A stretch of 27,608 bases of DNA from a candidate division WOR-3 bacterium (GTDB taxonomy: Bacteria > Hydrothermota > UBA3072 > B12-G15). Each line of letters starts with the position of its first letter. Position 1 is the stretch's first letter. The stretch spans positions 4,540 through 32,147 of the forward strand of contig CBFGJG010000021.1 in NCBI GenBank assembly GCA_965649055.1. Reading direction: 5' to 3'. Position numbers: made by a program. Shown piece after piece: positions 3,001-6,000 of the stretch.

Positions 3001-6000
3001 TTTTTATATTTTTAACACTTTTAATATTAGAAAAGATTTTGGAAAGGAGGTAGGATGTTTAAAAATGTGTGGGAAGTTATAACAGAAAAGGAAAAACAGG
3101 AAATGGAAAAGTTTGTTTCTGATTACAGAAGTTTTATTGAAAGATGCAAGACAGAAAGACTTGTTGCAGAAGAAGCGGAAGAGGTTGCAAAAAAATGGGA
3201 CATACCATATATTCTTTTCAGAAAAAAGACTATAGCAATGTTCAAACCATATGGTGACCCAATAAAAGATGGAATAAGGATTGTTGTAGCACATTCCGAT
3301 GTACCAAGGATTGATTTAAAACCAAGACCAGTTACAGAAGAAAATGAATTTGCTATGTTTAAGACAAGATACTATGGAGGGATTAAAAAATATCAGTGGC
3401 TATCTCTTCCACTTTCACTCTTTGGTGTTGTTTACAAAAAAAATGGTGAAGAAGTCAAAATAAAGGAAGACGAGATTGCATTTGTGATTCCAGACCTTGA
3501 ACCACATCTTTCGAGAAAATACGACGAAAAAAAGACAAATGAATACATAGAAGCAGAGAAACTTATGCCAATTGCAGGCTCAATCCCTTCAAAGATAAAA
3601 GAGGAAAGGTTTAAGAAAGGTGTCTTGGATTATCTTAAAAAGAAATATGGTATAGAGGAAGAAGAACTTGTTTCAGGTGAACTTGAACTTGTTCCTTCTA
3701 TAAATTCTATGGAAATAGGTGTTGATAAAGGTTTGATAGGTGCCTACGGACAGGACGATAGGGTCTGCTGTTATACTGCTTTAAGGGCATTGATGGGAAT
3801 GGGTGGACAGAAAAGGAGTGCACTACTTATACTTTTCGATAAAGAGGAGATTGGGAGTGTTGGGAACACAGGAGCACAATCAAATATAGTTGAGGATGCA
3901 GTTATAGAAATCCTTGAGAAACTGGGTATCGAAGCAAGCTATAAGAATGTGAGGAAGGCACTATTAAAATCAACATGTATTTCAGCTGATGTTAATGCTG
4001 CTGTGAATCCTCTTTTTTCTGATACACTTGACCCTAAGAATGCTGCAAGGCTCGGCTATGGTCTTGTTGTTACAAAATATACAGGTCATGGAGGAAAAGG
4101 TGGCTCTAATGATGCAAACCCAGAATTTATATCAGAAGTGCTCAAGATATTCGACGAAAATAATGTTCGTTGGCAGACTGGAGAGCTTGGGAAGGCTGAT
4201 GAAGGTGGTGGTGGAACAGTTGCAAGATTCCTTGCTTTTTTTGGGATTGAGATAGTAGATGCAGGGGTCCCTTTACTTTCTATGCATTCACCATTTGAGA
4301 TATCAAGTAAGGTTGATATATATGAAGCATACAAAGGATACAGGGCATTTTTTGAAAATTGAAAAAAATAAAAAATACCCCTTGACATTTTACTGTTTTA
4401 GTATATTTTTTTATTACTATTTTAACCCCCGATTATTTTCTCTTCATTTTTGCCCTCCTTCTGTAGGCTCGGATTTCCGAGCCTACAGTTTTTTTTTGTT
4501 AAACCTTGAAAAAATCAAAAAATCTAATATAATGTGAAAAAACAGGAGGTTCTATGAGAAAATATGTATATTATTTTGGTGGTAAGAAAGCAGATGGAAG
4601 TATTAAGATGAAAAATATTATAGGTGGAAAAGGTGCTGGACTTGCAGAAATGACAAATATTGGTATACCAGTCCCACCTGGATTTACAATTTCAACAGAG
4701 GTATGCACTTATTATTACAAGAAAGGCAAATATCCAGCAGGTTTAAAGAAAGAAGTTGAAGAAGGGTTAGAAAGGATTGAGAAACTAACAAAGAAGAAAT
4801 TCGGAGATAAGAAAAATCCATTACTTGTTTCAGTCCGTTCAGGTGCAAGGGCGTCTATGCCAGGTATGATGGACACAATACTTAATCTTGGTCTTAATGA
4901 TGAAACAATTCAGGGTCTATTGGAAAAGACTAAAAATCCAAGATTCTGCTATGATTCTTATAGAAGATTCATCCAGATGTATGGTAATGTTGTATTGGGT
5001 ATAGAACATGAAAAATTTGAAAAGATTATAGACGAGGTTAAAGAGAAAAAAGGTGTCAAACTCGATATAGAACTTACAGGGGATGACTGGAAGGAAGTTG
5101 TGGAAAAATATAAGTCTATGATTAAAAATGAGATAAAGAAAGAATTTCCAAAAGAACCTTACGAACAGCTTTGGGGCGCTATTGAAGCGGTTTTTAAATC
5201 CTGGAATAACCAGAGGGCAATTGAGTATAGAAAAATTCACAACATACCTGATGATTGGGGAACGGCATGTAATGTTCAGGCAATGGTTTTTGGTAATCTC
5301 GGAGAGAATTCAGGGACAGGTGTTGCTTTTACAAGGAATCCTTCTACGGGTGAAAATGAGTTTTATGGTGAATATCTTATGAATGCCCAGGGAGAGGATG
5401 TTGTTGCAGGTATCAGGACGCCGCTCCCGCTGAGTAAGAAACAGAAAACAAACGGAAATGAGATAAGCCTTGAAGAGGCATCCCCGAAGATTTATAAGCA
5501 ACTACTTGATATCAGAAAGAAACTCGAATCCCACTTTAAAGATATGCAAGACCTTGAATTCACAATAGAAGATGGAAATCTTTATCTTTTACAGACAAGG
5601 TCAGGTAAAAGGACCGCAATGGCAGCAGTGAAGATTGCGGTTGATATGGTGAAAGAAAAACTGATAGATAAAGAAGAAGCTGTATACAGGGTAAAACCTG
5701 AGCATGTCGACCAGTTATTACACCCCATGATTGACCCAAAAGCAAAATTTACAGTTCTTGCAAAAGGACTCCCTGCTTCTCCAGGTGCAGCGACTGGAAA
5801 AGTCGTATTATTCCCTAAAGATGCTGTAGAAGCAAAAAAGAACAAAGAAAAGGTTATACTTGTAAGGCATGAAACATCACCCGAGGATGTTGCAGGGATG
5901 CATTCTGCTGAAGGTATATTGACAGCAAGGGGTGGAATGACATCGCACGCAGCGGTTGTAGCAAGGGGTATGGGTAAACCATGCATTGTTGGTTGTGAAT

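Follow-up and report, generated by a model that had tools for sequence, protein, structure and literature searches.

A putative stand-alone small RNA gene displaying an anti-Shine-Dalgarno sequence, conserved in three families of a WOR-3 class

Introduction

Small RNAs that pair with ribosome-binding sites have been described in several bacterial groups. RsaE/RoxS of Staphylococcus and Bacillus as well as RsaI are reported to pair with G-rich Shine-Dalgarno (SD) regions by repeated C-rich motifs and to block initiation, with Hfq being dispensable (PMC6158497, PMC8383071). In Listeria, LhrC1-5, Rli22 and Rli33-1 are described to possess redundant CU-rich motifs with varied flanks, one of them single-stranded before the terminator, which pair with ribosome-binding sites independently of Hfq (PMC8079631). 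Equally, an ultraconserved anti-SD motif and independence of Hfq are described for the NfeR1/Cuckoo RNAs and AbcR1/2 of Alphaproteobacteria, with about 7% of genes reported as targets of NfeR1 (10.1101/2025.11.14.688489).

Analysis of an intergenic locus of a candidate division WOR-3 bacterium points to a small RNA gene that is real, narrowly distributed and not catalogued before, which would represent a new family of a known type of regulator. As in RsaE/RoxS and RsaI, C-rich modules are directed against G-rich SD sequences (the pairing being predicted in our case). However, in the available descriptions of RsaE/RoxS the C-rich motifs are duplicated, one located in a stem-loop and one between stems, whereas the WOR-3 RNA possesses a single unpaired stretch and no 5' stem; RsaE duplexes are, furthermore, described to be cut by RNase III, an enzyme not found in the 26 genomes of this class. 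Neither the Rfam model nor sequence homology linked RsaE/RoxS to the small RNA, over which no match was obtained up to E-values of 5 and 2. With LhrC the small RNA has in common a CU-rich motif in a single-stranded stretch before the terminator, but the LhrC RNAs are described as 105-121 nt long, multicopy and equipped with a stem-loop A, in contrast to 80-100 nt, a single copy and one hairpin here; the LhrC hallmark of two stem-loops with a single-stranded joint, UCCC in loop A and in the linker, and multiple copies is not displayed. The likeness to NfeR1/Cuckoo and AbcR1/2 is the strongly conserved anti-SD motif, yet the Cuckoo/NfeR1 RNAs are described to present CCUCCUCCC in two to four hairpin loops, whereas GCCCUCCUU is linear here, joined to an anti-AUG module and found in an unrelated lineage, in an RNA matching no Rfam model. 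The lack of an Rfam match was confirmed over the own locus and seven homologue loci. Within the literature searched, and with the phylum label as given in an earlier note, the proposal of that note that this is the first small regulatory RNA candidate for WOR-3 can be upheld: titles and opening lines of abstracts on small RNA in WOR-3 and, more broadly, on such motifs contain nothing on this RNA, and small RNAs are not treated in the accessible portion of the paper on the WOR-3 isolate (PMC12285271).

Architecture of the small RNA gene

The window, that is the whole stretch of 27,608 nucleotides that was analysed, belongs to the genome called G000 below, and all coordinates are window positions unless a contig is named. 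Its intergenic stretch 4363-4553 consists of TTGACA, a pyrimidine-rich tract, a 12-bp hairpin and nine T, placed, as had been stated before, between an aminopeptidase gene and ppdK. The features are:

3055..4362, + strand: upstream neighbour, aminopeptidase gene (NCBIfam NF002600 above cut-off); adjacency not conserved
4382..4387, + strand: -35 box TTGACA, by sequence; at the same distance in 8/8 homologues with upstream DNA
4404..4409, + strand: -10 box TATTTT, spacer 16, by genome-calibrated spacing; TAnnnT at 16 in 5/8 homologues
4416..4497, + strand: predicted small RNA of about 80 nt, by the probable +1 at A4416, conservation edge and fold
4426..4431, + strand: first C-rich module CCCCCG, by alignments; partly conserved
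4436..4447, + strand: second module UUUUCUCUUCAU with CAU at 4445-4447, by alignments; complementary to AUG and purine-rich first codons
4433..4447, - strand: antisense mini-ORF (MKRK, then stop) preceded by AAGGAGG; regarded as a by-product
4448..4460, + strand: invariant 13-mer UUUUGCCCUCCUU, in 9/9 sequences
4454-4460, + strand: anti-Shine-Dalgarno core CCUCCUU, equal to the 3' end of the own 16S rRNA
4461..4497, + strand: intrinsic terminator, 12-bp stem 4461-4488 and U9 tail 4489-4497
4506..4533, + strand: promoter belonging to ppdK itself, TTGAAA-16-TATAAT, located 3' of the terminator
4554..7232, + strand: downstream neighbour ppdK (TIGR01828 above cut-off), adjacent in 2/6 genomes

The promoter had been proposed as TTGACA-17-TAGTAT, a reading that has to be replaced, as the distance between TTGACA and TAGTAT is only 11 nt; TATTTT, at 16, is the usable -10 box. 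This choice is made because a 16-nt spacer prevails in the housekeeping promoters of G000, where 171 of 381 intergenic TTGACA sites have TAnnnT at 16 versus 50 at 17 and 10-37 at other spacings (10 to 21). The -10 box is looser in three of the eight homologues with upstream DNA (L052, G002 and G003). Promoter-proximal start codons and tRNA genes listed for G000 suggest a +1 about 7 nt past the -10 box, from which we infer transcription to begin at A4416; an A at position 29 behind TTGACA is found in all eight homologues with upstream DNA. One RNA sequencing run contained only distant ppdK and aminopeptidase fragments and no match over the unit, which speaks neither for nor against expression. 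Rex or Fur boxes over the promoter were not evident by eye in comparison with the consensus sequences.

The predicted intrinsic terminator, with its 12-bp stem and U9 tail, was confirmed in the sequence. In nine sequences 7 of 11 stem pairs show two-sided changes, so that the covariation claimed earlier is borne out; pairing is kept in 98% of cells compared with 32-53% in slid controls, and none of 500 shuffles reaches the covariation score. This covariation shows the terminator and nothing beyond; the U tails are weak in G002, G003 and G025. The 5' part is indeed unpaired (45 nt, C/U-rich) and the 82-mer 4416-4497 forms no structure besides the terminator, but the fold z of -7.7 given previously refers to another span, the value being -6.7 for 4416-4497. 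Since the first 48 nt alone score z 0.21, the fold z-score is the terminator's alone, and with shuffles of the 5' part equally unpaired, its unpaired state is a consequence of composition.

An anti-SD block of 14 invariant nt had been noticed, whereof the invariance stands but the length is 13 nt, since the U run, of 4 to 8 among the nine sequences, is reduced to four U in two homologues. Changes in the body are otherwise mostly C/U exchanges; the stem covaries freely and the seed stays fixed. In G002, UAU replaces CAU, which could still pair with AUG through U-G wobble.

A promoter-to-terminator census of G000 gave 10 distinct units, among which the hairpin of the small RNA is the strongest. 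Two related 110-116-nt promoter-to-hairpin units with a long inverted repeat in common occur on contigs C4 and C70 of G000. In addition, a different unit, likewise extending from promoter to terminator, is found in a sister-family genome (L027; G005 C13:7369-7481, - strand); it measures about 110 nt, forms a long hairpin and is not homologous to the small RNA.

Distribution, neighbourhood and the working strand

Copies were sought with a covariance model and by comparing DNA across the 26 class genomes. Three genomes of the own family besides G000 (G002, G003 and G004) and two of two other families (G025 and G001) carry one copy each (6 of 26 class genomes), consistent with the six genomes in three families counted before, and no convincing copy is present in 20 sister-family genomes. 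Over 151 phylum genomes the covariance model gave 83-103 bits for the five copies it had been trained on and 44 for G001, with 35 or below for the rest. The small RNA was not found in the 125 other phylum genomes searched; promoter, seed and hairpin were combined neither in any of the 7 weak matches outside the class at E <=0.005 nor in a second G001 match or 3 of 7 weak sister-family places. A promoter-plus-seed match on contig C7 of G001 was rejected, being located inside a coding frame and not folding. Pattern scans matched 14 times in metagenomes, 2 times in viral sequences and 39 times in genome collections, all matches being close kin of the six copies; they added the close relatives L052, L055 and L054, with nothing beyond the group.

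Selection on the RNA is apparent from close pairs. The window and L052 agree at 74/75 RNA positions, 7/16 promoter-spacer positions and 133/251 four-fold ppdK sites (53%); G004 and L055 agree at 80/80 RNA positions, 9/16 spacer positions and 98/146 four-fold ppdK sites (67%). Even if neutral identity is set as high as 0.85, the chance of such agreement in the RNA would be 7e-5 and 2e-6, respectively. Conservation has a sharp 5' edge, high in the RNA and low in the promoter spacer, and the window and L052 do not differ at a single base even in the AU-rich 5' end. Together with the genome-calibrated promoter spacing and the fit of the seed to start regions (see below), these comparisons lend good support to the prediction of a non-coding RNA gene that stands alone, is read from the + strand and is strongly selected.

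As the earlier note had stated, the neighbours differ from genome to genome. G004 has ppdK and a TetR gene beside the unit; in G002 and G003 the same convergent ABC transporter adjoins it, together with cobA and hutH, respectively; and the convergent gene is plsY in G025, whereas G001 has a DUF4416 gene in convergent orientation. Because promoter, body and terminator are kept while the neighbours change, the unit, a sigma-70-type promoter followed by a C/U-rich body, which is single-stranded and carries two or three anti-purine modules, and by a terminator, reads as a self-contained gene in three families. A role as 5' leader or attenuator of ppdK would agree with the position of the small RNA immediately 5' of ppdK in the window, G004, L052 and L055; against it, there is no co-oriented downstream gene in G001, G002, G003 and G025, the promoter of ppdK itself follows the terminator, and no antiterminator structure appears in the computed folds. 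With conservation far above neutral, which also speaks against a mere terminator with chance sequence, this explanation is largely refuted and highly improbable. Near the G001 copy, a cobalamin riboswitch (L024:669-833, 104 bits) lies upstream of an ECF-type membrane gene.

The minus strand reads in the order hairpin, AAGGAGG, ATG, KRK and stop, with a perfect SD and an ATG in five of six genomes, and four of six genomes have a convergent gene that reaches the unit or extends through it, the exceptions being the window and G004. Observations of this kind would suit a working minus strand, with a hairpin-protected mini-gene or convergent mRNA 3' ends for which the + strand RNA would be a cis-antisense partner. 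Yet, as had been argued before against the MKRK mini-ORF, the ATG is absent from one homologue (ATA in G002); the peptide is unconserved at 3 to 12 residues (MRK in G003, eight residues in G001 and twelve in G025), its SD spacing ranges from 5 to 9, and no minus-strand promoter or gene feeding it is found in the window. The + strand -35 box, on the other hand, is kept in 8/8, and since this conserved promoter points that way the + strand is taken as the working strand. The IS10 RNA-OUT type of cis-antisense RNA covers a transposase start with promoter, anti-start codon, anti-SD and terminator; the small RNA has this layout in common, but no conserved overlapping gene, as for a type I antitoxin or cis-antisense partner, is found on the opposite strand. 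An IS256-like element in G000 with a similar promoter/anti-ribosome-binding-site/terminator layout over its own start can be counted in favour of a working minus strand, which altogether we regard as very improbable. Two convergent genes, plsY of G025 (L004:874-1536) and the DUF4416 gene of G001 (L024:1524-2267), read antisense and in frame through terminator and seed before stopping.

The element just mentioned, with a transposase on G000 C3 and C16 that we take to be IS256-like from its motifs, has a 94-nt promoter-to-terminator unit (diverged copy on C1) on the opposite strand over the transposase ribosome-binding site and AUG, possibly a cis-antisense RNA. At window positions 1-72 (- strand) the left end of a high-copy IS481-like element is located, relatives of which match best to NF033577, below cut-off. 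Genome-wide, 23 of 32 left ends of this element are placed upstream of an exact TTGACA of the opposite strand, at a distance of 19-20 nt, and the remaining ones mostly beside near-consensus boxes; in the window the TTGACA is at 92-97, and the target duplication on contig C21 is about 15 bp. Promoter-targeted insertion has been published for Mutator-like families (PMC3942029).

Pairing with ribosome-binding sites and the search for targets

The pairing analysis used gene starts of a crude gene caller (1949 calls in G000). The 28-nt seed, paired with the start regions of conserved genes (250 regions), reached -12.1 kcal/mol versus -10.5 +/- 0.6 kcal/mol for 40 shuffles and ranked 1 of 41; four homologue seeds ranked 3, 4, 1 and 1 of 41, the five seeds not being independent. 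The same five seeds ranked 5, 4, 19, 16 and 2 of 41 on internal AUG windows and, again as non-independent values, 2, 5, 3, 1 and 4 of 41 by the start-minus-internal difference. As the seed beats shuffles of the same composition, the order of its letters suits initiation sites in general. Against pairing as the mode of action, three of the five seeds also rank fairly high on the internal windows, the modal spacing from GGAGG to the start is 4-5 nt, compared with a register of 5-9 in the small RNA, and GC directly follows AGGAGG in 0/324 start regions, which leaves the invariant GC without a Watson-Crick partner there.

Individual targets did not emerge. The best duplex among 1946 start regions has -37.2 kcal/mol, and the best of 12 shuffles range from -29.8 to -40.7; no full 14-nt complement occurs elsewhere in G000. 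A comparison of starts of G000, G001 and G002, with 659 starts from 1.57 of 2.1 Mb for G001 and 439 from 0.80 of 2.2 Mb for G002, revealed no conserved specific target by excess pairing, the cross-genome correlation being just 0.08-0.15. The top target in G000, the membrane protein gene g1203, was rejected with a duplex within the shuffle range and an excess percentile of 0.26 in G001; five g1203 orthologues pair at -27 to -33 kcal/mol. Equally rejected was the leader of the IS481-like element, the best of 5439 genome-wide seed windows (-41.4), which lies half within a hairpin and upstream of the homologous transposase start, in an element not found in the five other RNA-bearing genomes and present in 7 of 20 genomes without the RNA. 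Several 2-oxoacid:ferredoxin oxidoreductase subunits appear in the top pairing lists. The idea of a ribosome-binding-site blocker is partly supported: the seed fits start regions, but no target survives the controls, and blocking would be a presumed function. Apart from pairing, the g1203 family is present in the five relatives searched, the G002 member without a Pfam match, and a four-gene membrane-protein cluster on G000 C1:5686-11921 is tandemly duplicated.

One or two dedicated targets would provide another explanation, the best candidate being rpsD (uS4) with a site overlapping the end of rpsK, whereby small-subunit assembly would be throttled. rpsD is the sole orthologue, 1 of 257, with a complement of GCCCUCCU in all three genomes compared, and GGAGGGU is present in 6/6 RNA-bearing genomes versus 0/18 assembled sister-family junctions, five of which likewise end in RRV. 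However, this site equals an SD sequence plus a Val codon of S11, the sister family represents one clade, and 21/52 junctions outside the class have the site without detectable RNA. With the invariant G pairing solely as G-U and excess-pairing percentiles of 0.012, 0.29 and 0.11, we consider a regulator of one or two dedicated targets, such as rpsD, very improbable.

The seed had also been called a copy of the 16S anti-SD, which is correct for CCUCCUU(UC) only, 7-9 nt, and incorrect for the invariant UUUUGC part. Era reads GAUCA of the 16S tail, and in the small RNA UUGC replaces GAUCA 5' of CCUCC. This difference bears on a decoy function, in which the small RNA would be made and bind a protein with a preference for the 16S tail or for C/U-rich RNA devoid of structure (KhpA/KhpB, bS1, Rho, bS21 or Era). 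In line with a decoy, no specific mRNA partner was found, the invariant GC is not explained by pairing, even the AU-rich 5' end is kept base for base, and KH proteins are present; but the order of the seed fits start regions better than shuffles of the same composition, and Era would not meet its GAUCA. A decoy is rated unlikely.

RNA-binding proteins and RNases

Hfq and RNase III (PF14622) were found in 0/26 class genomes, 16 of which are at least 90% complete, with the control search for Hfq positive in 5/14; an Hfq-dependent small RNA is accordingly not indicated. ProQ and CsrA were not found in G000, which is 94% complete. The KhpA/KhpB domain is present in 5/5 genomes searched, and Jag_N in G000. 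KhpA/B are reported as small RNA binders in Hfq-less Fusobacterium (10.1101/2023.10.30.564711).

Discussion

A promoter and terminator of its own, independent of the neighbours, and a conserved unpaired seed complementary to ribosome-binding sites characterize the functional kind of this RNA. Judged from these sequence features, the gene probably encodes a trans-acting, chaperone-poor small RNA that masks the ribosome-binding sites of multiple targets in the manner of RsaE/RoxS, LhrC or NfeR1 and yet constitutes a new family. Transcribed from A4416, its GCCCUCCUU module would nucleate on SD sequences, the variable U4-U8 linker would bridge the spacer between SD and start, and the CUUCAU module would extend the duplex over the AUG and the first codons, whereby the 30S subunit would be barred from several or many mRNAs. 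As searches of the class genomes revealed neither Hfq nor RNase III, the mode would be plain occlusion, perhaps stabilised by KhpA/KhpB, and no RNase III cleavage.

More far-reaching, and doubtful in our view, is an RNA aimed at the initiation site as such, with no regulon, as a mirror of SD, spacer, AUG and first codons. SD-led translation might then be damped genome-wide and ribosomes shifted to leaderless mRNAs; about 95 of the 1949 crude gene calls in G000 look leaderless. If this were true, one 80-base RNA would be a global translation switch in a lineage with RNA regulation minus Hfq or RNase III. As the design is already familiar, the surprise is moderate unless the small RNA acts globally.

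The small RNA is short enough for synthesis, and masking of ribosome-binding sites without chaperone or RNase III is therefore directly testable in vitro. A deep, almost uncultured bacterial lineage thereby gains a concrete candidate for a regulatory RNA, in which the anti-Shine-Dalgarno design may have arisen again, this time as a minimal, linear version and in genomes that yielded no match for Hfq or RNase III.
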